In this document: piece after piece, positions 36,124-51,747 of the stretch | Layout of the letters: each line of letters begins with the position of its first letter | How positions within the stretch are numbered: position 1 is the stretch's first letter | Assembly (NCBI GenBank): GCA_963833095.1 | Contig: CAWHWQ010000001.1 | Location: forward strand, 888,595 to 952,594 | Length of the DNA stretch: 64,000 nt | Source of the DNA: Vulcanimicrobiota bacterium | GTDB lineage: Bacteria; Vulcanimicrobiota; Vulcanimicrobiia; Vulcanimicrobiales; Vulcanimicrobiaceae | Direction of reading: 5' to 3' | Program-made: the position numbers and the translations under genes | The notes under the pieces: generated by a model | Told to the model about the DNA's origin: nothing | Databases searched by the model: none | What the model saw: only the letters and a program-made list of their open reading frames with translations

Positions 36124-36972
36124 GTGAGCTGGTTCCATCAAGAAGACGATGAGGCGCCCGCTCCGCTTCCGGACGCCAAGTATGTAATCTGGGCGCTCTA
36201 TGCGCTAGTCCCGGTTCTTTTGGGGCCGGCTATTTACTATTGGTGGCTTCTCCGGGACCACTTTTCGTGGTCGCGATGCGTACTCGGCGACGCGCCCTGT
36301 TCGCTAGCCGTCTCGACGTATCTACTGTGCCTAGTGACGCTTTTTGCTTTTATCGCCGCATACACTGCTGCAGTCTATGCCGCAAGAGCGCTGCGCAACG
36401 AACAGCGCGCCGCTTTGGCCATTCAGCGGTGTAGGCGCAAGCACAGAAATAAACGGGGCGCTGTCGAGCTCTATCTCGACGAATCGATCGGGCGACTCTT
36501 CACCGAAGACCCGCCAGCCGGATTTGAAAGGCGGACTTGGTTTTCGACGTGTTTTCTCGCAAGTGGCGTCGGGCGCTCACCAGTGGTCAATGCGCAACTG
36601 GATTTTGCCGCCGCCTTCTCCGGCGACAGGCAGATGATCGATGGAACGGCTTACTTGGGCACACTTGAAGCGATCGGAAGGGCCCACATCGTTATCTGGG
36701 CGCCGCGTCGGAATCTTAAGATCGTGTGGTCACCCAGAGCAACTCATAATGAAGGCAAGGCTCTCAGGCTCTACATACAGGCGAGAGAAGCCGCCGAGCC
36801 TACAGTGGTACTACCACTCACGTTTGGGATGGGCGAACAAGCCCCGGCCCAATTTGAAGGTCCAGCGACCCGGCCGGAGCCGCCCCGATCAATCTGGCAA
36901 AGGATCGGGACGACTTTAGGACAGGCACTTACTTCCGTGAAGAAAAAAATGTCGGCTTGGCGCATACGATGA
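36124..36972 (+). CDS. Hypothetical membrane protein (2 TM + soluble domain)
   Basis: Hydrophobic segments YVIWALYALVPVLLG and YLLCLVTLFAFIAAY. Confidence 0.65.
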   Translation: MSWFHQEDDEAPAPLPDAKYVIWALYALVPVLLGPAIYYWWLLRDHFSWSRCVLGDAPCSLAVSTYLLCLVTLFAFIAAYTAAVYAARALRNEQRAALAIQRCRRKHRNKRGAVELYLDESIGRLFTEDPPAGFERRTWFSTCFLASGVGRSPVVNAQLDFAAAFSGDRQMIDGTAYLGTLEAIGRAHIVIWAPRRNLKIVWSPRATHNEGKALRLYIQAREAAEPTVVLPLTFGMGEQAPAQFEGPATRPEPPRSIWQRIGTTLGQALTSVKKKMSAWRIR

Positions 36973-37235
36973 AAGCGACGACCCCCGAAGATCCTCGAAA
37001 GCCGCTTTTGTCGAAGCGAAAGATAGCTGAGCGACGATATATATTCGTCCTGATCTTACTCTCGGTCTTGCTCACGGCTGGCGGTTTCTATGTCATCAAC
37101 TTAGGCGAAATTGCCGACGCCAAGTACTTCCGCGTCGCGGATCACAAAGACCGAGAGACAAAGAAATCGACTAGCAGACATTGCCAGCCGATAGTTCGAG
37201 CCACTGGGAAACCTGCGCGGCCGCCTAAGCATTAG
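36969..37235 (+). CDS. Small single-TM hypothetical protein
   Basis: ATGA overlap with upstream stop; YIFVLILLSVLLTAGGF. Confidence 0.55.
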   Translation: MKATTPEDPRKPLLSKRKIAERRYIFVLILLSVLLTAGGFYVINLGEIADAKYFRVADHKDRETKKSTSRHCQPIVRATGKPARPPKH

Positions 37236-37672
37236 CCACTCTTGAGGCGCGAATAATAGTTTCTCATCGACTCTTTCGTGATTTCTTCGTTCGCACGCTC
37301 CCCATCAAGAACGCCAGCACGCTTGCGAGCCTCAAGCCACGGCTGCTCGCCGTGAGTTAGCGCGCTTAAATATCCAGCAGTCTTGCTGCCATAAAATTTT
37401 AGGACGCTATCGACCGCGGACCTTGACGTGCCCGAAACGACAGATGGCGAACCACCCGCTACCGAATCAACGGTGAACTGATACTTATTCGCGTCCCAAA
37501 CGTCAGGGGTGACAGGACCGTTTGCCCACGCCTCGATGCGGTCAGGGAACAACGACCGACCGGTCCAGACCAGATGCCAGGCTTGCGCGTAGTAAACGAG
37601 CTTCTGCAGCTTCATCGCCGGCATAGGGCCGAGCTTTTGCAGAATGTAAGCAGCCACATCGCGCGCCTTCAT
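37232..37672 (-). CDS. Panacea-domain (DUF4065/SocA-GepA-like) antitoxin
   Basis: DVAAYIL..MKLQKLVYYAQAW..LF..IEAWANGPV..LSALTHGEQPW..I...MRNYY; AAAGGAGG RBS. Confidence 0.92.
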   Translation of the reverse strand: MKARDVAAYILQKLGPMPAMKLQKLVYYAQAWHLVWTGRSLFPDRIEAWANGPVTPDVWDANKYQFTVDSVAGGSPSVVSGTSRSAVDSVLKFYGSKTAGYLSALTHGEQPWLEARKRAGVLDGERANEEITKESMRNYYSRLKSG

Positions 37673-38185: not shown

Positions 38186-39133
38186 CTACTCATCGGGCGG
38201 GTCGAGAATCCCGTACTCGTTGGCTATTGCCTTGAAGCGCTCGTTAAAGTCGTCGAACAGAGGTACTACATCGACGCCGAGGCGTTGGAATGCAACGAGA
38301 ATAGCGAGCAGAAACGACATGCCCCGAGAAAGGCAGAACAGCCATTTTCCATCGTCCGTTATCGCGCGCTGAATCGGCCAATCGGGACGCTGCGCAATTC
38401 TGTTCGCTACCTCGCCGAGGGCGATGATTTCGGCGTGTGACCACTTACTCCAACCGTGCCACTCGTGCTTTTCCAGTATCGCCGCTTCCTGTTGCGCGTC
38501 GTTCAGCAGAGCGCCTGTCAGCCTTCGATCGGTCGCAGTTTCGCTCGCGCGTTGAAACAGTTCGTCAAGCTTCCCTTGAACCTGAACGTCGTCGAGGTGC
38601 CGGGCAGCCTCGCGCTGGGACGCGACCAGCGAACGATACACCCGCAACGCAAACGCCGTATCCGCTCGGTACGCACGTAGTCGTAGATCGCATTCGCCCA
38701 ACGCCCGCAGGTGGATTCTCGCTGCGCTCGACACTCCGGCAGTAACGAGCGTGAGGACCGCCTCCGCCTCTGCGGCCGCGATGGCTCCCGTGGCGATGGT
38801 CAACTGTTGGAGCGCGCATTCTTGTGGGTCGGTCGATGTCGGCTGCGCTCGCGCATAGCGGATAGCCGAAAGCAACGCCGTGATGCATTGGCCGAACACC
38901 TCAGCTAGACGCTGGTCGGGGAATGCTGCATTGGTCAAGAACTGCACGCGTTCTTGCGCCTCCGGCTCCGGTTGCCCCGTAAGCGTGAAGGGAAGGTCTG
39001 GGTCAAGGGCGCTCATAGGATCTCCTCCCGCAGGCCATTTGATCGCGACGTCGTCAGACCAATCCCGACGTTCACTGGCGCCGAAGTTTTCGGGCCGTTC
39101 AAAATTCAACTCGAAGCTATTCTCTTGACTCAT
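38186..39133 (-). CDS. Helical hypothetical protein (DUF5677/HEPN-like)
   Basis: AARIHLRALGE and WHGWSKWSH patterns; start overlaps end of Mrr-like gene with GAGGA RBS. Confidence 0.6.
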   Translation of the reverse strand: MSQENSFELNFERPENFGASERRDWSDDVAIKWPAGGDPMSALDPDLPFTLTGQPEPEAQERVQFLTNAAFPDQRLAEVFGQCITALLSAIRYARAQPTSTDPQECALQQLTIATGAIAAAEAEAVLTLVTAGVSSAARIHLRALGECDLRLRAYRADTAFALRVYRSLVASQREAARHLDDVQVQGKLDELFQRASETATDRRLTGALLNDAQQEAAILEKHEWHGWSKWSHAEIIALGEVANRIAQRPDWPIQRAITDDGKWLFCLSRGMSFLLAILVAFQRLGVDVVPLFDDFNERFKAIANEYGILDPPDE

Positions 39134-40184
39134 CCTCAGGAGGAATTAACGTCCAAATCTGTTGCAGCGGAATTAGCGTCTGCATCTCCTCAGAGAGCAG
39201 CGGATAGACCTTCAGTAGCTCTGTGACGAGATCGAATCCGGTCCAAAGACGGAGTCGAAAGAAATTCCGGCGCGCTTCACGTACCGCCGGCCCCGTGAAG
39301 CCACCCCATGCGACAAACAGACCATGGTCAGCGCCGAAATTCTTCAGTGCACCGTCAAGTTCGCGGACCGGCTTTACATCAACGCGGCCAGCCTCAGACT
39401 TGACCTGTACACCGATTCGTGGCGGATCAAAACCAAGGTCGCCTCTACCCGCCGTAAGATCTATCCCTCCGTCAGCGCCTTTGTCCGTCGGATTTACGAC
39501 ATAACCCTGTGCTTCAAGAACGGCCTGCACTACCGATTGGAGATCATGTCCTTTGAATCTTCGAATGACGTGCTCCATGATCGTCGCACGTGCCTCATCC
39601 TCAAGATTCCGAGCTAGTTCAGGGACGCCATCGCTCTGTAGTGCCTGCTCTACCTTCTCGCCACTCAGAGCCGCTGCGCCAATGACATTGTCCGTTCCGC
39701 CATTTAGGATGCTTTCAATGCGTTCTGCAGCATTGTTTCGCGTAACGTTACAAACGGTCATGAATGCGCCCAGAGAGTAGAGAAGGTCTTGCCCAAACGA
39801 AGAGCGCGGCACGTTAGTGCGGACCCATTTAACGTCCCGCGTGTGCGCAGCATCAATCGTTACGTATTGCTCCTGAAATTTGTACTCGCTCGTCACTCTG
39901 CCGAGCGCAATCCCGCTCGTGTGTTTTAGCGGCATCGCAACGATATCACCCGGCCGCATCGTAGACCTGAAAGGAAAGATCTGCGAAGCCCAATTGGCAA
40001 TGGTATGCTTGGATTGGTCGGGATGAACCACCTCAAGACGTTGGCGAATGTCCTCGCGCGTCCGGAGTTCAGACAAATCGCCGGTCTCAGCCCAGCCTAT
40101 TGTGGCAAGTCCATTATCCAAAGCCAGGGCCTCGCGTTCTCCGCGCCGGCCAGCTCGAACAAGCCAAACAGTCGCCACTGTCAT
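39117..40184 (-). CDS. Mrr-like restriction endonuclease (type IV, COG4127-like)
   Basis: WLVRAGRRGE..IGW..MRPGDIVAMP N-terminal domain; Mrr catalytic GADGGID..VQVK..GLFVAWGGFT..LW. Confidence 0.9.
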   Translation of the reverse strand: MTVATVWLVRAGRRGEREALALDNGLATIGWAETGDLSELRTREDIRQRLEVVHPDQSKHTIANWASQIFPFRSTMRPGDIVAMPLKHTSGIALGRVTSEYKFQEQYVTIDAAHTRDVKWVRTNVPRSSFGQDLLYSLGAFMTVCNVTRNNAAERIESILNGGTDNVIGAAALSGEKVEQALQSDGVPELARNLEDEARATIMEHVIRRFKGHDLQSVVQAVLEAQGYVVNPTDKGADGGIDLTAGRGDLGFDPPRIGVQVKSEAGRVDVKPVRELDGALKNFGADHGLFVAWGGFTGPAVREARRNFFRLRLWTGFDLVTELLKVYPLLSEEMQTLIPLQQIWTLIPPEDESRE

Positions 40185-40401
40185 ACCTCTCGTCGGATTT
40201 ATCACGTTTGGGCGAAATGAGGCGATTCAGACTCTACTATCCGAGCCATAGGCTTGGCGAGGATCGTTGTATCTGCCTTTCGCCGCCTTTGGCACATGAT
40301 AAGGTCGACCCCAAGCCATGCAGACCTACCTCCTCGAGCCTCTCCGGACTATCGGAGAATCGTCGGGTGCGTCGTAAAATCATATTAGGAGGCGCAGCCG
40401 A

Positions 40402-40935: not shown

Positions 40936-41189
40936 ATGGCCGCTCTTCTACGAAGCTGGCGGCGCGAGTAAACTTAACGAACACCGCAATTCGTTACAAC
41001 ATGAAGAGGCCGGGAAAGCTCTGGTCGTAGTCCATTCAGCTCAGGACGAAATGGGATGGGACACTCCTCGTGCACGGCCAGGCAGAGCTTCAAGGCTCGA
41101 CGAGGATGGTCGATGAAGTGGTCCGTAGGCGACACCAGGGCGTTGCCCAGGGCTAGCGTTTCCATTGCAGCACGTCAGTTAGGGTACCG

Positions 41190-42638
41190 ATGTTCGAGCA
41201 AGCCTTCAAGAATATTGACAACGTGCTCCGCACCGAGAGCGGCGCGCAGAGCGAGCTAGATTACACTGAGCAAACGTCGTGGTTGTTGTTTCTCAAATAC
41301 CTTGACGCCCTTGAGCAAGACCGCGCTACGCAAGCCAAGCTAGAAGGCAAACCTTACAAGTTCATCCTCGACAAGCCGTATCGTTGGGACGCATGGGCCG
41401 CGCCAAAGACCAAAGATGGCTCTATTGATGACAATAGCGCATTGACCGGCGACGACCTGCGTGACTTCGTAAACACGGAACTCTTCCCGTACTTGCACGG
41501 CTTCAAAAAGCGCGCGTCCGGTCCAAACACCATCGAGTATAAGATCGGCGAAATCTTCGGCGAGATCAAGAACAAATTTCAAAGCGGCTACAACCTACGA
41601 GAAGTTATAGATGAGCTCGATGCACTTCGCTTCCGTTCGCAGACTGAGAAGCATGAGCTCTCGCATCTTTACGAAGATAAGCTCAAACGAATGGGGAATG
41701 CCGGTCGCAACGGTGGCGAATATTACACTCCTCGACCCCTCATTCGTGCTATCATCAGTGTTCTAAAGCCCCAGATCGGCGAGCGACTCTATGACGGGGC
41801 TCTCGGCTCAGGCGGCTTCCTCTGCGAAGCCTTTGACTACATGAGCAGCAAGCCAGGTCTCAAGACTAAGGACTTGCGCACCCTTCAAGAACGAACGTTC
41901 TTTGGTAAGGAAAAGAAGAGCCTCGCCTACGTCATCGGCGTGATGAACATGATTCTACACGGCATCGATGCTCCGAACGTCATCCATACGAACACGCTGG
42001 GCGAGAACATCAGCGATATTCAGGACAGCGACCGTTATGACGTCGTGTTGACAAACCCGCCGTTTGGTGGCCATGAGCGCAAGGAAATTCAGCAAAACTT
42101 TCCGATCCGATCGGGCGAAACTGCATATCTCTTCCTTCAACATTTTATGAAGAGCCTCAAAGCCGGTGGTCGTGCGGGCATAATCATCAAGAACACCTTC
42201 CTTTCGAACGGCGATGCCACTCGGCTTCGAAGAGAGCTCCTCGACACTTGTAATCTACATGCGATTCTCGATCTACCGAGTGGAACATTTCACGGCGCAG
42301 GCGTCAAGACAGTTGTGCTCTTTTTTGAGAAGGGTTCTCCGACGCGAAGAACCTGGTACTACCAACTCGATCCTGGCCGCAATCTCGGCAAGACGAATCC
42401 ACTAAACGACAATGACCTGATCGAGCTCGTTGATTTCCAGAAGACTCTTACTAACTCTCCAAAGTCGTGGTCCATCGACATCTCAAGCATTTCCACAGAT
42501 ACCTACGACCTGTCCGTCGTAAATCCCAATGGAGGGAAAGCGCTACAACATCGAAGCCCACAGGATATCTTGGACAGGATCGCGGCCCTCGACGCTGAGA
42601 CAAACGAGCTACTTAAATCGGTGAGGTCGCTACTTTGA
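41190..42638 (+). CDS. hsdM: Type I restriction-modification methyltransferase subunit
   Basis: GEYYTPRPL, DGALGSGGF (motif I), NPPF (motif IV), ETAYLFLQH. Confidence 0.96.
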   Translation: MFEQAFKNIDNVLRTESGAQSELDYTEQTSWLLFLKYLDALEQDRATQAKLEGKPYKFILDKPYRWDAWAAPKTKDGSIDDNSALTGDDLRDFVNTELFPYLHGFKKRASGPNTIEYKIGEIFGEIKNKFQSGYNLREVIDELDALRFRSQTEKHELSHLYEDKLKRMGNAGRNGGEYYTPRPLIRAIISVLKPQIGERLYDGALGSGGFLCEAFDYMSSKPGLKTKDLRTLQERTFFGKEKKSLAYVIGVMNMILHGIDAPNVIHTNTLGENISDIQDSDRYDVVLTNPPFGGHERKEIQQNFPIRSGETAYLFLQHFMKSLKAGGRAGIIIKNTFLSNGDATRLRRELLDTCNLHAILDLPSGTFHGAGVKTVVLFFEKGSPTRRTWYYQLDPGRNLGKTNPLNDNDLIELVDFQKTLTNSPKSWSIDISSISTDTYDLSVVNPNGGKALQHRSPQDILDRIAALDAETNELLKSVRSLL

Positions 42639-43765
42639 TGAATGCGTGGAAGAGTACCGCTATTGGCGACGTTCTAAGACTTCAATATGGAAAACCTCTT
42701 CCCGATTTCGATCGCGACGTAGAAGGTCTGTACCCTGCATATGGCGCGAACGGCGAGAAGACTCGAACTAACAAATTCCTCTGCGATGCTCCAAGCATAG
42801 TCGTTGGCCGTAAGGGTTCAGCGGGGGAACTCTTAGTCACGGAAAGCCGGTTTTGGCCCCTTGATGTGACATATTATGTGGATTTCGATCGAAGCAAATA
42901 TGACCTTGGATTCCTCTACTATCTACTCGACACACAGGATCTGCCGCGTCTGGCTAAGGGAGTTAAGCCAGGCCTTAACCGAAACGATGTCTACTCACTC
43001 CGCGTTGCCGTCCCACCTCTGCCGGAACAGAAGCGGATCGCCTCGATTCTCGATGGAGCCTTCGAGAGCATCGCCGTGGCGCAGGCCAATGCAGAGAAGA
43101 ATGTCGCAGCCACCCGTGAGGTGTTCAAAAGTTATTTGCATTCCATTTTCGATCACCGCAGGGACAATTGGCAGAGAATCCGGATCGCGAATGTATGCGA
43201 ATCGATCATTGATTGTATTAACAAAACCGCTCCAAAGGTCGACAGCGAAACCTCTTTCAAGATGATCCGCACAACAAATGTTCGAGACGGAATGGTCAAT
43301 CTCGATTCGGTCAGCTATGTCACCGAGGGTGTATACCGAAAATGGACGCGACGACAGGTCCCACAATACGGAGACATCCTTTTGACACGTGAGGCGCCAC
43401 TTGGTGAAGTCGGCATGCTCCTCACGAATGACAAGGTTTTTCTTGGGCAGAGGCTTGTTTCATACAGGGCGAATCCCAAAGTGCTGTACAATCGATTTCT
43501 GCTCTACGCGTTTCAGTCAGTCGACATGCAGGCGCAGATAAGGGGCTTTGGTTCCGGCGCGACAGTCCATCACATGCGTGTGCCGGACTCGAAGGCGCTT
43601 CTCGTGCCGATGCCTACGATCGTTGAGCAACGACGCATAGTCGATCATATCGAATCGCTTCGCACACAAGCCCAACGACTAGAGGACACCTACAACACCA
43701 AGGTTTCCGAACTTAACGACCTGAAAGTGTCCTTGCTCCATGCCGCGTTCAACGGGGAGCTATAG
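42635..43765 (+). CDS. hsdS: Type I R-M specificity subunit (two TRDs)
   Basis: VGRKGSAG, VPPLPEQKRI, MPTIVEQRRIV, SLLHAAFNGEL. Confidence 0.95.
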   Translation: MMNAWKSTAIGDVLRLQYGKPLPDFDRDVEGLYPAYGANGEKTRTNKFLCDAPSIVVGRKGSAGELLVTESRFWPLDVTYYVDFDRSKYDLGFLYYLLDTQDLPRLAKGVKPGLNRNDVYSLRVAVPPLPEQKRIASILDGAFESIAVAQANAEKNVAATREVFKSYLHSIFDHRRDNWQRIRIANVCESIIDCINKTAPKVDSETSFKMIRTTNVRDGMVNLDSVSYVTEGVYRKWTRRQVPQYGDILLTREAPLGEVGMLLTNDKVFLGQRLVSYRANPKVLYNRFLLYAFQSVDMQAQIRGFGSGATVHHMRVPDSKALLVPMPTIVEQRRIVDHIESLRTQAQRLEDTYNTKVSELNDLKVSLLHAAFNGEL

Positions 43766-46119
43766 TGGAGCGCCCCTACAACGAGGCGGATACCCGCGCT
43801 GAGTTCATTGAGCCGGCGCTTAGCTCCGCCGGCTGGGGCGTCGTCGAAAACAGCCGTGTCGTTCGAGAGTATCACATCACGAAAGGCCGACTTCAGGGAC
43901 AAGGTAGGCGCGCCTCCCCCGATATTGCCGACTTTCTCCTCTGCTATCGGAACCACACCCTTGCCGTCGTCGAAGCAAAGAAACTGAGTCTTCACTACAC
44001 GGAGGGGCTCGCTCAAGCTAAAAACTACTCTGCCAAACTCGAAGTCCGGTTCGCCTATTCCACGAACGGTAAAAAAATCTATGGTGTTGATATGGATACG
44101 GGGAAAGAGGGCGACGTTGCAGTCTATCCGAGCCCTATCGAGCTGTGGGATCGTACGTTCCCCAGTGAGAATGCGTGGCGCAATCGCTTCAGCGCAGTTC
44201 CATTTGACGACAAAGGCGGGTCATGGCAGATTCGCTACTACCAAGAAATTTCGGTCAACAACGTCCTTGAAGCGATCGCTGCGGGAAAGAAGCGGGTTCT
44301 TCTCACCCTAGCGACCGGCACAGGGAAAACGCCCATCGCGTTTCAGCTCGCATGGAAACTCTTTCAGTCCCGCTGGACGCTGGCGGGCGATGAACAGCGT
44401 CGCCCGCGTGTCCTCTTTCTGACCGACCGCAACTTTCTCGCCGATCAGGCTTACAACGACTTCTCCACGTTTCCTGAAGATGCGCTCGTTCGCATAAGCC
44501 CTGACGACATTCGCAAGAAGGGCAAGGTCCCGAAGAATGGGAGCATCTTCTTCACAATCTTCCAGACGTTTATGAGCGGAGCATCCGAAGACGGTCGGCC
44601 AAGTCCGTACTTTGGCGAGTATCCGCCTGACTTCTTCGACTTCATTGTCGTGGACGAGTGCCATCGTGGCGGAGCGAACGATGAAAGCACCTGGCGCGAG
44701 ATCCTGGAGTATTTCAAGCCCGCCGTGCAGCTAGGCATGACGGCTACTCCGAAGCGCACGGACAACATCGACACTTATAAATACTTCGGCGATCCCGTCT
44801 ATATCTATTCCCTAAAGCAGGGCATCAACGACGGCTTCCTCACGCCTTTCAAGGTGCGCCAGATCTCGTCGACCTTGGATGATTATACATATACGCCAGA
44901 CGATACGGTAGTTGAGGGCGAGATTGAAGCCGGAAAGCGATATACCGAGTCCGACTTCAATAAGATTATTGAAATTGAAGCCCGTGAGCAATATCGCGTG
45001 AAGCAGTTCATGGATTTGATCGACCAGCGAGAGAAAACGTTAGTCTTCTGTGCGACACAGGACCATGCGCTTGCGATACGCGATCTCGTTAATCAGTATA
45101 AGACGAGTGCAAATCCCCAATACTGTGTACGAGTCACAGCAAATGACGGCGCTCTTGGCGAGCAGGCGCTGCGCGAGTTTCAGGACAACGAGAAGACGAT
45201 CCCCACCGTCCTCACAACCTCGCAGAAACTTTCAACTGGCGTAAATGCGCGAAACATTCGCAACATCGTTCTTCTCCGGCCCATCAACTCAATGATCGAG
45301 TTCAAGCAGATTATTGGCCGCGGAACGCGGCTCTACGATGGCAAAGACTACTTCACGATTTACGATTTTGTTCGCGCGCACGAGCATTTCAACGATCCGA
45401 CCTGGGACGGCGAGCCAGCAGAACCGGAGCCCCCTAGTGAACCAAGGCCGAACGGGCCCGGCGGCGCGATATCGCCTTTTGTTCCGCCACCGGAGCGCGA
45501 GCGCCCGGAGAAAGTCGTTGTGAAACTGGCCGACGGTAAAATACGCCAAATTCAGAGCATGGTGTCGACAAGCTTCTGGAACGCCGATGGTAAGCCGATG
45601 TCAGCGCAGCAGTTCCTGGAGAGTCTCTTCGGCGCGTTACCGGATTTCTTTAAGAATGAGGACGAGCTTCGCACCCTCTGGAGCGACCCAACCACGCGGA
45701 AGGCCCTGATCGGTCAGCTGGCTGACAAAGGTTTTGGAAGTGACCAGCTTGCCGAAATGCAGCACATTATCGACGCCGATAATGCGGACATCTTTGACGT
45801 TCTCGCTTACGTCGCGTTTGCTCTCCCGACCAAAACCCGCCTGGAGCGAGCGGCACTAGCACAAGTAGACATTGACAAGACTTACAATGAGAAACAACAA
45901 GCTTTCTTGGATTTCGTGCTTGGGCAATATATAAGCGAGGGAGTCGCTGAGCTAGACACCGAGAAGCTCTCACCGCTTCTCATTCTGAAGTATAACGCTC
46001 TTGCGGATGCTATCGACGCACTTGGCGACCCCGACTCTGTACGAAAGATGTTCACGGGATTTCAGCGGTACCTATATAAACCGCGAGAAGAACGAGACGA
46101 CAGCAGATCTTTTCGCTAG
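43765..46119 (+). CDS. hsdR: Type I R-M restriction subunit (EcoEI/EcoAI-like)
   Basis: NEADTR, AD..VVEAK, LATGTGKT, DECHRG, MTATPK, QIIGRGTR; EcoEI-type C-terminus. Confidence 0.95.
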   Translation: MERPYNEADTRAEFIEPALSSAGWGVVENSRVVREYHITKGRLQGQGRRASPDIADFLLCYRNHTLAVVEAKKLSLHYTEGLAQAKNYSAKLEVRFAYSTNGKKIYGVDMDTGKEGDVAVYPSPIELWDRTFPSENAWRNRFSAVPFDDKGGSWQIRYYQEISVNNVLEAIAAGKKRVLLTLATGTGKTPIAFQLAWKLFQSRWTLAGDEQRRPRVLFLTDRNFLADQAYNDFSTFPEDALVRISPDDIRKKGKVPKNGSIFFTIFQTFMSGASEDGRPSPYFGEYPPDFFDFIVVDECHRGGANDESTWREILEYFKPAVQLGMTATPKRTDNIDTYKYFGDPVYIYSLKQGINDGFLTPFKVRQISSTLDDYTYTPDDTVVEGEIEAGKRYTESDFNKIIEIEAREQYRVKQFMDLIDQREKTLVFCATQDHALAIRDLVNQYKTSANPQYCVRVTANDGALGEQALREFQDNEKTIPTVLTTSQKLSTGVNARNIRNIVLLRPINSMIEFKQIIGRGTRLYDGKDYFTIYDFVRAHEHFNDPTWDGEPAEPEPPSEPRPNGPGGAISPFVPPPERERPEKVVVKLADGKIRQIQSMVSTSFWNADGKPMSAQQFLESLFGALPDFFKNEDELRTLWSDPTTRKALIGQLADKGFGSDQLAEMQHIIDADNADIFDVLAYVAFALPTKTRLERAALAQVDIDKTYNEKQQAFLDFVLGQYISEGVAELDTEKLSPLLILKYNALADAIDALGDPDSVRKMFTGFQRYLYKPREERDDSRSFR

Positions 46120-46152
46120 ATGGTGATGAGGGTTCGGGGTGCGTAGAGAGAT

Positions 46153-48447
46153 ATGAACGAGTCTGATCTCAGCGAGCTCTGGCAAGCGTACGACGCTTTG
46201 AGAGGCACTCGATCGCCCGATCCGATTCACCTTGTCGAAGAGGCCGCGCGGCGCGGCATCACAGTCACGGTGGACGATATTCGTCACCTCGCTTGGAATC
46301 GATCTCGCGAGTTTTCCTTCGGTATCGTACCCAGCGAGGCTCTCGTTAATTTCTTCGTGTCGCTAGGAGCAGCCTTATCACCTAATACCGTACTCGATCC
46401 TTGGGCAGAGTTCGGGCAGATCATCGTTCCGACCGCACGCAATCAAATGGTGAGCGATGCATACGCTCTTACGCCGAACCACGGCACCGCCGATCTTGGG
46501 CGACGGCTTTCGGAGGGGCTTCCGATACGATGGGAAGTCGGTGACCCGCTCGTGACGATGGAAGACGTCGGCACAATTAACCTCATTGTCGGTTGTCCGC
46601 CATTCAGCTACCGGCGAGAGCCCGCTGAAGTCTCTATTCGGGGAGTCCGCTTTAGAGAAGACTATGGAAACCAAATTGTAGCGAAAGCCTGCGCGGAACA
46701 TCTAAGCAGCGCGGGCACCGCGGCAGTTGTCTTGCCACCGTCTTTCGCGTTTAGAGAGACCGGTTTAAGGCCGCAGCTTCAGCACTTAGGCTTGTGTCTC
46801 GCTGGCTTGCTCCATGTTCCTCCTCGCTTCTTCAGTGGCACGGACATCGATAGCTACGTCGCGATAATAACGCGGAAGACTTATGACGACATGTTCGTTG
46901 GGGAAATCGGCGCCAACGACGACCATAATAAAACACTGATTAAGAACCTCCTCGACCGAAAGGAGACACGAGAGCTATCCCTTGGGCAGCTTCGGAAGCA
47001 AGGCGAGTTCCTCACGTACCAGCAGATCGACGCCGAGCGACGCGTATCGCTGCTGGCTCAACGCATTGGCGGTGCGCCGGCAATTCTTTCGGATATAGCC
47101 TTCGAGATCAACTTTCCTGGCGGATCTGACCCTCTGGTAGAGCGCGACAACGCGATCTACATGCCCGTGGCTGGAAGCGCGCGCGTTCGCACGGGGCTTG
47201 ACGAAGTACCTTCTCGGTCGAAAAACTACGTTCAGGTGGTGCTAGACCCCGAAAAGGCTCTCGCAAGCTATTTGGCGGCATATTTCAACTCGCCGGTTGG
47301 TCGCGCAACTCTTGACTCGATGAGGACCGGGACGACTATCCAGCGCATCAGCAAGGAAGCGCTCCCGCTTTGTGAGGTCTATCTTGTTCACTTGGAGACG
47401 CAGATTAAGTGCATTGAGACTGACGCTAAGGCTGAGAATCTCATCAGCGAACTTTCAGCGCTGAAGAATCGTATCTGGGACGAACCGCGAGCGATTGCCA
47501 AAACCGCAAAGCGTTTGGCTCAAGTTAATCGCGATGACTCGATTCTGTCGTGGCTCGAGACACTGCCATTTCCCCTTGCCTCCGTGCTTTGGGCGGGCTT
47601 CGCAGCTGGAGACGATTTCAAGGAGCGATACGAGCACCTTTTACACTTCTTCGAAGCAGTTGCCGAGTTCTACGGAATCGTTCTCTGGAGCGCGACCACA
47701 AGTGCGCCAGCGCTTCGAGACGATCCCAGTTATCCAATCTCTCCAGCGCAACCATTCAAGAACTCGTTCGACCGCAGCACATTCGGTGCTTGGGTCGAAA
47801 TGGTCGGACGGGTATCGAAGTTCTGTCGGCCGCTCGTTAGCAAACCAGACGGGAAAGAACGCCTCACTGGTGCCTTCGGCACGGCCGATCGCGAGGTGTT
47901 GGCTTCGCTCTTCTCGCCGGGAATCGTGGAACAGATCCAGGCAGCGAATCGCATCAGAAACAGGACGGCACATGGTGGAGCACTCGGCGATGAAGAAGCC
48001 GCAAGACGCTGTGTCCAGCTAGAACGGGTTGTCGCCTCTCTGCGGACAGCGGTCGGCGATATGTGGAGTGCAATCCCGCTTCTCAAGGCTGGGCGTGCGG
48101 GGTTTCGCGGAGGCGTTTATCAGTACGATGCTGAGCGAATCATGGGCCGTTCCCAGATCTTCGAACACGTCAAGGTCTCGACGAGCAGACCGCTCGAAGA
48201 AGGCCGTCTGTTCCTTCTTGCAAACGACTCAACCGCTCCGGTCGCACTCGCGCCCCTGGTTATCGTGGGTCCATCGCCCCAAAAAGCAAACAATGCAGCG
48301 TACTTTTACAATAAGGTTGATGGCGACGATCTACTCTTCATTTCTTACCACTTCTCGCCGGAAGCAGAGATCCTTAGTACTGATCCCAGCGCGCGCGATG
48401 TTCTCAGGAGCCTCATCGAGGCGACGCGATCGCCAGAATCAAAATGA
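46153..48447 (+). CDS. Degenerate N6-MTase-like + HsdS-like TRD + putative HEPN domain fusion
   Basis: DPWAEFGQ (cf. motif I), GCPPF (cf. NPPF), VLPPSF, YLAAYFNS..G..GTTIQRISK TRD-like, C-terminal RNRTAH (RxxxxH). Confidence 0.75.
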   Translation: MNESDLSELWQAYDALRGTRSPDPIHLVEEAARRGITVTVDDIRHLAWNRSREFSFGIVPSEALVNFFVSLGAALSPNTVLDPWAEFGQIIVPTARNQMVSDAYALTPNHGTADLGRRLSEGLPIRWEVGDPLVTMEDVGTINLIVGCPPFSYRREPAEVSIRGVRFREDYGNQIVAKACAEHLSSAGTAAVVLPPSFAFRETGLRPQLQHLGLCLAGLLHVPPRFFSGTDIDSYVAIITRKTYDDMFVGEIGANDDHNKTLIKNLLDRKETRELSLGQLRKQGEFLTYQQIDAERRVSLLAQRIGGAPAILSDIAFEINFPGGSDPLVERDNAIYMPVAGSARVRTGLDEVPSRSKNYVQVVLDPEKALASYLAAYFNSPVGRATLDSMRTGTTIQRISKEALPLCEVYLVHLETQIKCIETDAKAENLISELSALKNRIWDEPRAIAKTAKRLAQVNRDDSILSWLETLPFPLASVLWAGFAAGDDFKERYEHLLHFFEAVAEFYGIVLWSATTSAPALRDDPSYPISPAQPFKNSFDRSTFGAWVEMVGRVSKFCRPLVSKPDGKERLTGAFGTADREVLASLFSPGIVEQIQAANRIRNRTAHGGALGDEEAARRCVQLERVVASLRTAVGDMWSAIPLLKAGRAGFRGGVYQYDAERIMGRSQIFEHVKVSTSRPLEEGRLFLLANDSTAPVALAPLVIVGPSPQKANNAAYFYNKVDGDDLLFISYHFSPEAEILSTDPSARDVLRSLIEATRSPESK

Positions 48448-48510
48448 TTCTCTCATGCTGAACCGATCGGAAATCTGGACAAACGTGTCACCCCGCTAAA
48501 GAGAGGCAAC

Positions 48511-48795
48511 TTGATGCTGAGACTCCTCTCCGCCGACCGCATCGCCAACGACATCGCGACACGAATCAGCGAGACACCCACGCTCACGGAGTATGACGAT
48601 CACCACGTATTGACTGCCCGCGGGCACAGCGTACTCATCGCTGCCACGGAAGGCGGTGACTGGTTTTGTAAGGACGTCTCAAAGCCGCATGCGCACCAGG
48701 TCGACAATCTGTTGCGCGAGCATTTTCTCGAAACGGTCGCATCGATGTTGGTCGGCGACCGACCTTGTGCCGCGTGCCCACCGAATCAAGCGTAA
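48511..48795 (+). CDS. Hypothetical protein
   Basis: GAGAGG RBS; 94 aa. Confidence 0.5.
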   Translation: MMLRLLSADRIANDIATRISETPTLTEYDDHHVLTARGHSVLIAATEGGDWFCKDVSKPHAHQVDNLLREHFLETVASMLVGDRPCAACPPNQA

Positions 48796-48877
48796 GATGG
48801 CTGACACCGCGTCCCCTATTGCCGTCTTTCCGAGTCTCGCGACCGGCGGCCGCCCTCTCATCTGGTGACATAAACCG

Positions 48878-49150
48878 GTGAAACTCTCAACTGAAGAGGC
48901 GGTCGTCCGCGCTCTTTTGCTTCACAAGAGTCCGGCTAGCGCGGATGACGCAGCGGCAGTAGCAGAGGTTATCCCGGTTTTGACGCTCGCGCTCGCCGGT
49001 GAAGATGAACACGACCAAGAGTTGCTAGCGCTAGCGGAATCCTGGCTCGCCGACCCCTCTAGTTTGGGCCGCCGTGCTCGTGATCTCGCCGTCGACCTTG
49101 CTCGCCGCGTCGCGGAGATTCGAGAAATCGATGTGGAGGGCGACCGCTAG
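48878..49150 (+). CDS. Hypothetical helical protein
   Basis: 90-aa ORF in intergenic space, co-oriented with neighbours. Confidence 0.5.
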   Translation: MKLSTEEAVVRALLLHKSPASADDAAAVAEVIPVLTLALAGEDEHDQELLALAESWLADPSSLGRRARDLAVDLARRVAEIREIDVEGDR

Positions 49151-49266
49151 CACAGCGCAACGAAGTCGACGATTAGTAAGCTCCTTCTTTCGCGCCTCCG
49201 TAGCGTGGACGCAAAAGTATACCAGCGATGGCGTGCAGAATTGAAGGTTTAGGAGGAGGCGCTCCG

Positions 49267-49641
49267 ATGTTCAGGACGAGTAAGAAACTTCCCAAGCCTA
49301 TCCTGAAGATGTACGACAGCGAGGGTCGCATTGACGGACTCGCGATCGCCTCTGGACTTGGCGAAAGCCCCTCGTCAATGGCGAAGGCGCTTGGGGTGCC
49401 CCTCCAGACAATGCTAGAAAATCCTGTCACAGAACTGATCCAGCCTCTCGGTCTTAGGCTGGCCGGCATCCTCGACGAGCTCACGCACTACTTCGGCGGC
49501 GACTTCAAGGCCACCGTAGTGTGGATGCGTAAGCCGCACCCGCAACTCGACGACCTCTCGCCGCTCGATCTCCTCAAAGAAGGCCATATCAATACCGTCG
49601 CTGCGATGGTACGCATGATCGGTACTGGGGAACCCAGCTAA
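49267..49641 (+). CDS. MbcA/ParS/Xre-type antitoxin (DUF2384-like C-terminus)
   Basis: AGGAGGAGG RBS; HTH-like MAKALGVP; WMRKPHPQLDDLSPLDLL motif. Confidence 0.85.
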   Translation: MFRTSKKLPKPILKMYDSEGRIDGLAIASGLGESPSSMAKALGVPLQTMLENPVTELIQPLGLRLAGILDELTHYFGGDFKATVVWMRKPHPQLDDLSPLDLLKEGHINTVAAMVRMIGTGEPS

Positions 49642-49644
49642 CTG

Positions 49645-50157
49645 TTACTTATGACTCGAAGCGTTGCGTCTGCGCACCCTCGTGAAAGGTGGGTCCGGTA
49701 AGCCGCTGCTATCTAATCGTCGGGACCGTACGCGAAACTTGTGCTCGTGCGGCCTCGGCGGCAGACCATCATCGTCATCAGCACTCAACAGAAGATTGTC
49801 GCGTATCTGCGTGATGAATTTTAGCTGGAGACGTCGAACTGGTGCTCTCGCCTCGTCGGGATCCAAGCCGTGCTCAATATATTGCCCTAAGCGCCAGAGT
49901 CGAAAGTCCCTGGCGATATTGGGTCGGAGCATCCGTCGCAAATATTCCCTGAGAAGCACGTCAGCGATGAGTTCAGAAGACGTTCGCGCGTTTGTGCCAT
50001 CAAGTTTTACGTGTCGTCGGCTAGCGGCGTACCAGACAAAAAAGTCAAACGCCTCGCGCATACCGGGACCGTCAAAGTAGAGATTTTTTCTCGGATGGTC
50101 ACTGCCCGCCGGCTTTGAGCAAGCCGCCCAGGGCTTAGTTTCTTCGTGTCTTGGCAT
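49645..50157 (-). CDS. Hypothetical protein, possible RHH-like DNA-binding N-terminal half
   Basis: GGGAGA RBS; RKNLYF strand then helices (SSELIADVLLREYLRR). Confidence 0.6.
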   Translation of the reverse strand: MPRHEETKPWAACSKPAGSDHPRKNLYFDGPGMREAFDFFVWYAASRRHVKLDGTNARTSSELIADVLLREYLRRMLRPNIARDFRLWRLGQYIEHGLDPDEARAPVRRLQLKFITQIRDNLLLSADDDDGLPPRPHEHKFRVRSRRLDSSGLPDPPFTRVRRRNASSHK

Positions 50158-50551: not shown

Positions 50552-50676
50552 GGCGGTCGCGTCGCACGCAACACGCGCCTGTCTCATCTCACGAGATAAA
50601 GACGCGCGCACTTTCGTAGTGCTAAAGTGACGGTATGCCGCACGCCCGTGCGGCAGTACTTTCGGGAGGGCGGACC

Positions 50677-51747
50677 ATGACGGCTTCGCTCGCATTGCTT
50701 CCCACGCGCGACCTCCCAGTCGCCCATGCGCAGCTCCTGCACGACTGGCTCGCCGCCTACGTTGATCATCGCCTCAACCTAGGTCACCGGCAGCACAGCA
50801 TCGATGACGATCTCGCCTGCTTTCGCCATTTCATGCGCTTTGCTGGCCCGCACTTTTGGACATGGCAGGACGACGACATGGACCGCTATGGCGCGCACCT
50901 GCGCCGCTCGCAGAAGGCGCGCTCGACCTTGCGCCGCGCGCAAGGCGCCATCAAGGGCATCTGCACCTTCGCCGTGCAGAGCCGCACGCTCAGCGAGCGC
51001 TGCCGCGCGCTCACCGGCGCGCTGATTCCGCAAATCTGTCACCCGTGGAATACCCTGCGCCATCAATACGGGGCTGCAACCAGTAAACGCCGCCAGCTGA
51101 CCGACGAGGAAATAGCGCAATTGTTTGCCGCGATCGATACGGCGATTCGGCGTGCGCCGTCACGCTACGTCGAGCAGGCGCGGTTAACGCACCACGCCGT
51201 GTTCGCGGCGATACTGGCGACGGGCGCACGCGAACACGAAGCCGCGATGCTCGACGTCGCCGACCTCGCAACCGCAACCACGCCGTCGGTCAAGGCGTAC
51301 AGCCGCTACGAAGATGTCACGATTCGCTTTGGGAAGGCCCATAACGGTGGCCCGCCGCGCCGGCGCTCGGTGCCGGCGATCTACGAGCTGCGCAGCTTCT
51401 GGAATGCACTCGCGTGGTACGTCACCGAGGTGCGCCCGCAAGTCGCACACGCCTGCGAGGCGCTCTTTCTCACCCCGACTGGCACTCGTTACCGCGGCGA
51501 CCACCTCTCCGCACTGTTTTCGAAGTATCGCGACGCCGCACGTCTCAGCACGGACTTGACACTGCACTGCTTGCGCCACACCTTTGCGACGAAGTTGCAC
51601 GAGTACGGCTACGAACTGCCCGTCATCTCGCATCTGCTCGGTCATGCGTCGGACGCGACGACGATCATCTACGATCATCTCGACGCCGACAACCTCAAGC
51701 TGCGCGTCCTGCTGCACAACCGGCAGCTTCGGCAGGTGCACCGATGA
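50677..51747 (+). CDS. Tyrosine recombinase (intact catalytic residues)
   Basis: TGAREHE (R), GKA (K), HCLRH, LLGH, TIIY; GGGAGG RBS. Confidence 0.92.
   Translation: MTASLALLPTRDLPVAHAQLLHDWLAAYVDHRLNLGHRQHSIDDDLACFRHFMRFAGPHFWTWQDDDMDRYGAHLRRSQKARSTLRRAQGAIKGICTFAVQSRTLSERCRALTGALIPQICHPWNTLRHQYGAATSKRRQLTDEEIAQLFAAIDTAIRRAPSRYVEQARLTHHAVFAAILATGAREHEAAMLDVADLATATTPSVKAYSRYEDVTIRFGKAHNGGPPRRRSVPAIYELRSFWNALAWYVTEVRPQVAHACEALFLTPTGTRYRGDHLSALFSKYRDAARLSTDLTLHCLRHTFATKLHEYGYELPVISHLLGHASDATTIIYDHLDADNLKLRVLLHNRQLRQVHR

Follow-up and report, generated by a model that had tools for sequence, protein, structure and literature searches.

What is a fourth gene doing behind a type I restriction-modification (R-M) operon when much of its product resembles the operon's own modification and specificity subunits? 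We address this question in a 64,000-nucleotide (nt) stretch from a Vulcanimicrobiota bacterium (assembly GCA_963833095.1, contig CAWHWQ010000001.1, positions 888,595 to 952,594; hereafter the window), in which the ORF list and translation give an uninterrupted open reading frame (ORF) of 764 amino acids (aa) at 46153-48447 on the forward strand, here called gene X (protein P0001). We found that the N-terminal two thirds of X comprise a methyltransferase (MTase) catalytic domain and one target recognition domain (TRD), with the catalytic residue lost family-wide. The remaining C-terminal third is a module that moves independently, in which an R-N-x3-5-H motif and a glutamate upstream of it are invariant. 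X is most likely a back-up anti-phage alarm and not a DNA-marking enzyme, and we lean, with modest confidence, towards a defence protein that unites sensor and effector in itself and accompanies type I R-M operons.

A degenerate methyltransferase with a single target recognition domain

Gene X and its parts are as follows.

46153..48447 (+): gene X, a pseudo-MTase / TRD / HEPN-like / beta-barrel fusion with 60 near-length relatives
46333..47022 (+): MTase part, residues ~61-290, a gamma-class N6-adenine MTase fold with degenerate motifs
47050..47487 (+): TRD, residues ~300-445, single and HsdS-like, then long spacer helices (DSSP of the model: helices 414-443 and 445-457)
47536..48072 (+): HEPN-like helical domain, residues ~462-640, recognised by invariant columns and model topology
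48073..48444 (+): beta-rich domain, residues 641-764, a small barrel like the oligonucleotide-binding (OB) or SH3 fold and a terminal helix; its conserved motifs are PSP, NACYFYNR and SYHF

As a single sequence, X matches Pfam N6_Mtase below the cut-off (E=0.004) and PADLOC Specificity_I weakly (E=7e-6), and in PADLOC v2 and NCBIfam no defence model matches the whole protein, the only matches being partial ones to Specificity_I, mad5 and MTase_II (E 7e-6 to 3e-3). A profile of 48 aligned relatives, drawn from the 60 of near-full length after 12 short or atypical ones were omitted (P0004, P0005, P0027, P0031, P0033, P0040, P0050, P0051, P0053, P0054, P0057 and P0060), aligns residues 28-248 with solved HsdM chains (E=4.7e-19) and residues 373-445 with HsdS chains (E=7.7e-8). 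The full-length AlphaFold model (pLDDT, the predicted local distance difference test score, 89.8; predicted template-modelling score, pTM, 0.71) finds the type I MTase 7eew_A as its top Foldseek match (E=3e-13), followed by PacII, CamA, BpuSI and M.TaqI. An earlier note, made from the letters of the window alone, had seen a mimic of HsdM at the N terminus and the likeness of one HsdS TRD in the middle, and both likenesses hold. X lacks the HsdM N-terminal domain: there is no PF12161 match, and the profile alignment begins at about residue 132-186 of the HsdM chains. In M.EcoKI, that domain is described as bridging the clamp that surrounds DNA or Ocr (PMC2647291).

Translation places the motifs where the earlier note had put them. 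Motif I, DPWAEFGQ, starts at residue 82 (nt 46396; DPWAEFG spans 46396-46416), and GCPPF occupies residues 147-151 (46591-46605), with motif IV, CPPF, at 46594-46605. We followed these positions through 173 unique full-length members, assembled from protein matches of 700-900 aa and locus ORFs with duplicates dropped. The first residue of motif IV is highly variable (C 37, S 21, I 15, F 15, D 13, M 12, A 12, V 12, N ~7), with N or D in 20 of the 173, while its two prolines are largely kept (P149 in 119/173, P150 in 162/173). Motif I is better preserved (D82 in 152, G86 in 125 and G88 in 155 of the 173), and the motif II acid is kept in just 52. The loss of NPPF that the earlier note asked to have checked is thus a family trait: [ND]PP[FYW] is present in 4 of 63 X proteins versus 31 of 36 control HsdM proteins adjoining X, and the hsdM of the window has NPPF intact at residue 289. 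The window copy is eroded beyond the family consensus (G86E, D143N and C148), reading 'FN' at residue 143 where the consensus has 'FD'. Held against a functional gamma-class MTase, X has the fold but falls short in motif IV, in motif I together with the motif II acid, and in the HsdM N-terminal domain; held against HsdS, it has one TRD alone and no two-TRD hypervariable layout.

Over the same 25 loci, the mean pairwise identity within X is 0.297 (TRD), 0.273 (MTase part) and 0.346 (C-terminal module), and that of the neighbouring HsdS and HsdM is 0.187 and 0.282. The X TRD is not diversifying like a specificity subunit, because its identity is 0.297 against 0.187 for the neighbouring HsdS; such conservation fits a conserved ligand. 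We also considered a specificity shared with the neighbouring HsdS and rejected it: the cognate HsdS is the best match of the X TRD in only 1 of 36 loci, and X is therefore unlikely to read the sites methylated by the cognate system.

One relative departs from this pattern. P0050 (956 aa) retains HsdM_N, DPTCGSG and NPPW together with RNSWTGHGG in its module, and judged by these motifs it is possibly a still active methylase fused to the module. P0050 may resemble the ancestral form; since it keeps HsdM_N, DPTCGSG and NPPW, an active fusion was probably the ancestor of the family.

The C-terminal module

The C-terminal region was aligned over its last ~320 residues from 69 loci and the window copy (70 members), after removal of ORF pieces that lacked the motif or had an odd length, and of four loci with no X ORF. 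Eleven columns are invariant (W467, L471, P472, F473, P474, L475, F500, E501, W547, R602 and H607), among them those of a WxETLPFPL motif at 47551-47577 and the E501 codon at 47653-47655. The RNRTAH string to which the earlier note had drawn attention lies at residues 602-607 (nt 47956-47973), and its RxxxxH pattern is not a chance string, because R and H are invariant in all 173 members of the larger set (173/173 each), with N603 in 165. The spacing is mostly Rx5H (155/173), with Rx4H in 17 members, the window copy included, and Rx6H in one.

The AlphaFold model of the module (pLDDT 94.4, pTM 0.91) is helical over its residues 1-200, followed by a beta domain at 203-302, which appears from the model to be an OB-like barrel, and a last helix. 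In the module's own numbering, R162 ends helix 149-163, H167 lies in the loop 164-172 and helix 173-194 comes next; E501 sits in a long upstream helix and is not in the Ex3[KR] form. In a published description of HEPN domains (PMC3710099), the motif sits where core helix 3 of an up-down helical bundle ends and the loop leading to helix 4 begins; a polar residue follows the arginine, and a conserved acidic residue lies upstream. The module agrees with that description in its motif (Rx4-6H, polar residue after R), in the motif's placement and in its upstream acidic residue.

Searches with curated models gave fainter signals. No curated HEPN model matches above its cut-off, the best being HEPN_Swt1 (E 0.019-0.29), Abi_C (0.0019), Abi_2 (0.025) and HEPN_Apea (0.057). 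Over the 70 aligned members there are nine weak Pfam matches to HEPN families (HEPN_Swt1 4, Abi_C 2, Abi_2 2, HEPN_Apea 1), spread over four of the 38 families matched. Profile-profile comparison of the helical part by hhalign without secondary structure gives P values of 0.0024 to HEPN_Swt1 and 0.014 to Abi_C, the motifs lining up in register, against 0.76 for ferritin and 0.20 for hemerythrin as controls, and 0.0046-0.068 for accepted HEPN families against each other. Foldseek of the module model returned nothing at E<=0.001 from the PDB or from BFVD; HEPN chains were within the VIA top 50. The module sequence found three chance matches only in the PDB (E>=0.17) and none in PHROGs, and a scan of viral contigs yielded one locus. 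At the level of sequence, the evidence for HEPN is modest yet consistent. The HEPN fold proposed by the earlier note is upheld by motif placement and model topology but not by a curated model or a PDB structure, and on balance we regard the helical domain as probably HEPN.

The module is widespread. Searched with its profile, 1.84 billion representatives yielded 1898 matches at E<=1e-3 and 884 at E<=1e-30, a family of ~880 clusters at 50% identity that covers many bacterial phyla and Methanomicrobia. Most of the best 150 matches are ~760-790 aa long with the module at the C terminus, and 69 matches are proteins of 149-594 aa. Some of the latter consist of the module alone, which has a Met of its own, on contigs of 10-33 kb (for example P0205, 324 aa, and P0242, 298 aa, on contigs of 15-33 kb); in other short proteins the module is fused to DUF5655, a protein kinase, a partial RVT_1 or Methylase_S. 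The RN...H motif is retained in 8 of the 9 short proteins checked. A structure search of the ESM Atlas with residues 470-790 of P0038 placed the module in Macro- and CHAT-domain clusters (TM 0.71-0.74 by query), and a feature search there returned only clusters without names. Promiscuous fusion is typical of effector domains in conflict systems.

DUF5655 recurs around this family in three forms: as a NucS_C+DUF5655 gene (~308 aa) beside X (L002, L012, L027), fused to GmrSD, and fused to the HEPN-like module (L046:12463-14583; P0231-P0233, P0084, for these occurrences beyond the ~308-aa genes). This domain may serve the same effector as a further head for sensing DNA.

Genomic context of X and its relatives

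The genes ahead of X form a complete type I R-M operon.

41190..42638 (+): hsdM, type I methyltransferase subunit (Pfam N6_Mtase 1.4e-55 and HsdM_N; PADLOC MTase_I 2.2e-152)
42635..43765 (+): hsdS, specificity subunit with two TRD stretches (Pfam Methylase_S 7.3e-19, two stretches; PADLOC Specificity_I 8.6e-55)
43765..46119 (+): hsdR, restriction/translocase subunit of the EcoEI_R_C type (Pfam ResIII 5.9e-37, EcoEI_R_C 1.7e-29; PADLOC REase_I 1.8e-134)
48638..48659 (+): best terminator-like hairpin 3' of X, from a pattern scan whose total number of such sites is at chance level

The X start lies on the same strand, 33 nt past the hsdR stop (46119), as the earlier note had reported, and the gap holds no terminator-like site by the pattern scan. 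Promoter and terminator scans alike gave site counts at chance level, and the hairpin at 48638-48659 is a possible operon end. Two weak pairs of inverted repeats lie 5' of hsdM. A 94-aa ORF after X (48511-48795, forward strand) contains the hairpin; it has no relatives among the neighbours of X elsewhere and is probably not a gene. X is a single copy in its own genome. Among 201 genomes from its taxonomic family 4 carry it, and it was absent from the seven other genomes of the genus that were searched.

A locus scan of one genome per species gave 80 loci from many bacterial phyla and Methanomicrobia, for which ORFs were called anew and hsd genes labelled by BLAST from window proteins and Pfam-confirmed seeds. 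An X ORF is present in 76 of them. An hsd gene lies within four genes in 46/76 and a same-strand hsd gene within five genes in 43/76; X stands between hsdM/S and hsdR in 20/76 and after hsdMSR, RS or MS, the arrangement of the window, in 14/76. In several loci X shares a 4-nt stop/start overlap with hsdS or hsdR. The co-location with hsd genes that the earlier note had expected is therefore true of a majority, the other 33 loci having no same-strand hsd gene nearby; these include short contigs, other defence neighbourhoods and a Methanocalculus lineage with X beside OGG and hisF. HsdR is encoded elsewhere in 5/5 such genomes without hsd linkage, versus 8/14 control genomes. The HsdR partners themselves differ, being of the EcoEI_R_C type in the window and HSDR_N plus T1R_D3-like in others.

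Defence neighbours of X other than hsd genes are GmrSD, AbiEii, PIN_2 and Ymh, and AbiJ and DUF3644 genes share operons with X. A conserved antitoxin or partner gene was sought by clustering 215 flanking proteins and rejected, since the clusters held only GmrSD/DUF5655 (8 loci) and the vertical synteny of Methanomicrobia. On the module tree, phyla are mixed and hsd contexts scattered (31 changes versus a shuffled mean of 34.1).

Several loci stand apart. In a Methanomicrobia clade (L042, L048, L056, L064, L065, L070, L072 and L074), synteny with an OGG glycosylase gene and hisF is kept and no hsd gene is nearby; here X is inherited as a stand-alone archaeal lineage. In four loci (L053, L054, L077 and L080) X is split over two or three adjoining ORFs, either frameshifted or decaying copies or assembly errors. 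Four others (L010, L027, L038 and L047) read hsdM, X, hsdR with no hsdS by BLAST and Pfam-seed labelling; either hsdS was missed or X is in its place.

In the window, the hsd operon and X lie in a block of lower GC content (41000-50000, 0.50-0.58 versus 0.60-0.66 in the flanks), adjoined by a tyrosine integrase gene (50635-51747, forward strand), with no tRNA genes within 25000-64000; the operon and X are probably an integrated island. Just upstream of the hsd operon lies a Mrr_cat restriction endonuclease gene (39117-40205, reverse strand; Pfam 1.6e-25), followed downstream by a 315-aa ORF with a weak DUF5677 match (38186-39133, reverse strand) that overlaps it by 17 nt; the two genes may form a type IV-like unit. 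An antitoxin gene with a SocA/Panacea domain (37232-37672, reverse strand; Pfam 1.7e-18) has beside it a 282-aa ORF (36124-36972, forward strand) with no Pfam match at E<=1e-5. After X, an Xre_MbcA_ParS_C antitoxin gene (49228-49641, forward strand; Pfam 2e-8) would be expected to have a RES-type toxin downstream, and the ORF that follows it (49664-50080) has no Pfam match at E<=1e-5.

Trigger, alternatives and known systems

We propose that the C-terminal module would act as a metal-independent HEPN endoribonuclease (RNase), with the OB-like barrel helping to hold RNA. In resting X the RNase would be inactive, and the dead MTase-TRD would both sense and restrain. A ligand shaped like DNA would then bind in the MTase-TRD cleft and switch the RNase on, probably by pairing two HEPN domains; candidates for it are DNA that is invading or modified and anti-restriction proteins that mimic DNA (Ocr, ArdA). 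The active RNase would arrest translation and so bring about abortive infection.

The earlier note had offered a decoy or an extra subunit as the role of X. Its dead modification-specificity module fused to a HEPN-like domain is confirmed, whereas an anti-restriction protein as trigger is an idea we hold only tentatively. The fuller version, one polypeptide that is both decoy and executioner, its dead R-M recognition core baiting Ocr, ArdA or an attack on the cofactor and its own HEPN RNase answering, is likewise speculative, and direct sensing of DNA is a similarly tentative proposal. We slightly favour the decoy trigger over direct DNA sensing because the TRD is conserved, not diversifying, and X sits where prrC sits. 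Sensing of the level of S-adenosylmethionine (SAM) seems rather improbable.

Contact with the Hsd proteins would be a different kind of trigger. X would then be an extra pseudo-subunit, silenced by the HsdM/HsdS/HsdR complex as a guard of the PrrC type, and inhibition or loss of R-M would free the RNase. The position of X between hsdS and hsdR or right after hsdR in 34/76 loci, with the stop/start overlaps, suits such a guard; prrC too is described as embedded in a type IC locus (PMC12707154), and HsdR is available in every genome examined in which X is not beside hsd genes. That last point is tempered by the presence of HsdR in 8/14 control genomes of the family, and X is without the HsdM N-terminal domain, which bridges two HsdM and has been suggested to touch HsdR (PMC2647291). 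The HsdR type of the partner also varies, hsd contexts are scattered over the X tree, and the same module is joined to unrelated N-terminal domains, so that we consider an Hsd-contact guard unlikely. A DNA-binding regulator, in which the dead MTase-TRD represses or controls the R-M operon and the module is a regulatory or oligomerisation domain, could draw on the conserved TRD and on the hsdR-X gap without a terminator-like site. We judge it the least probable of the alternatives: the invariant R, N, H and E of the module suggest catalysis, the module also occurs alone and with kinase, reverse transcriptase (RT), Macro and CHAT domains, X is last or internal in the operon and not first, only two weak inverted repeats lie 5' of hsdM, and many X copies are away from any hsd gene.

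Hardly more probable is an enzyme acting on DNA, whether type IIG-like, an N4-cytosine or other MTase (S/C-PP-F), or a DNA-cutting module, that would provide a second restriction activity. The order MTase, TRD, spacer and C-terminal region is that of single-chain enzymes such as CamA, BpuSI and BrxX (PMC12839542), serine stands at the catalytic position in 21/173 members, and P0050 keeps its methylase motifs. The chemistry is impossible, however, with I, F, M, A or V at that position, the motif II acid is mostly gone, and the window copy is also without G86 and D143; restriction without matching methylation would moreover be self-toxic, and the X TRD best matches the neighbouring HsdS in a single locus. 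Finally, the module could be a ligand sensor whose R, H and E bind a small molecule or nucleic acid, with the N-terminal CHAT, kinase, Macro and MTase-like domains as outputs. In its favour are the fusions to two typical outputs, CHAT and protein kinase, and the OB-like barrel, which could bind a nucleic-acid signal; the CHAT fusion in particular leaves room for a sensing module and weighs against the sensor-effector protein we prefer. We nevertheless think a sensing module quite improbable: the N-terminal part of X is catalytically dead and unable to serve as an output, stand-alone modules exist, and HEPN nucleases have this same RN...H motif in the same placement.

How HEPN nucleases of R-M operons sense infection is mostly obscure, and the X family is both large and unannotated. 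Its presumed sensor is recognisable, burnt-out R-M recognition machinery, and thus the possible triggers are few: a DNA mimic, foreign or modified DNA, or the SAM level. According to a 2025 review, experiments have yet to identify abortive-infection systems that respond to modified DNA or to depletion of a cofactor. HEPN genes within R-M operons are already known (Anantharaman 2013; HEC-08, Payne 2024); for an MTase-TRD-HEPN fusion we found no description in the open literature, supplements and subscription journals being outside the search, and no model of Pfam, NCBIfam, PADLOC or PHROGs covers the X protein or the module. As a new portable unit of HEPN-like and OB-like domains (with kinase, RT, Macro, CHAT and DUF5655 fusions), the module merits its own family definition in defence annotation.

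Among known systems, the order MTase, TRD and helical spacer is shared with M.TaqI, CamA, the type IIG enzyme BpuSI and BREX PglX/BrxX (Foldseek 1e-6 to 1e-8). These keep (N/D)PP(Y/F/W) and methylate DNA, whereas X is without that motif; the C-terminal region of BrxX, given as ~250-300 aa, is a winged helix-turn-helix and coiled coil (PMC12839542), in contrast to the HEPN-like domain and barrel of X. The closest profile match to the module is the Swt1-like HEPN of DUF499/Hma-type ATPases (PF18731), with a common core of R-N-x-W-x-(G)-H and a shared place in R-M-like defence systems, although the pairwise P is just 0.0024 and the partner is an AAA+ ATPase instead of a dead MTase-TRD. AbiJ/Abi_C, ApeA and DUF3644 (HEC-08) are also HEPN proteins with Rx4-6H within R-M-type or Hma operons, and for HEC-08 a histidine mutant is reported to be without defence (Payne 2024 bioRxiv); they carry other N-terminal domains, and the HEPN-like domain of X is under all their Pfam cut-offs.

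Two systems come nearest in logic. PrrC, the E. coli anticodon nuclease of the type IC locus EcoprrI, is described as an 'RM guardian' that fires on inhibition of restriction (PMC12707154; Anantharaman 2013), and as characterised there it has in common with X a C-terminal Rx4-6H effector of HEPN type within an hsd operon. The regulatory part of PrrC is an ABC ATPase, whereas X has a dead MTase and TRD and an extra OB-like barrel; Pfam, PADLOC and NCBIfam scans found no ATPase domain in X, none of our searches matched X to PrrC, and the 33 X loci without a nearby same-strand hsd gene contrast with the prrC arrangement. Ronin is reported as hsdS and hsdM without hsdR plus a 61-aa RonA, in which Ocr, ArdA or Aop1 triggers cell death and an NPPF mutant still works (Silas et al. 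2023 bioRxiv 10.1101/2023.04.06.535777). By that account Ronin resembles X in that its modification and specificity parts sense instead of methylate, X having lost the motif altogether. Ronin consists of three genes, its toxin being a small membrane protein and its HsdM and HsdS full-length, whereas X joins a HEPN-like effector and one TRD in a single chain, lacks the HsdM N-terminal domain and usually stands beside a complete hsdMSR; the Ronin gene set is absent around X, where hsdR is present and there is no conserved small partner gene. If X does prove to be decoy and executioner in one, the decoy logic of Ronin and the HEPN-guardian logic of PrrC would be fused in a single widespread family.

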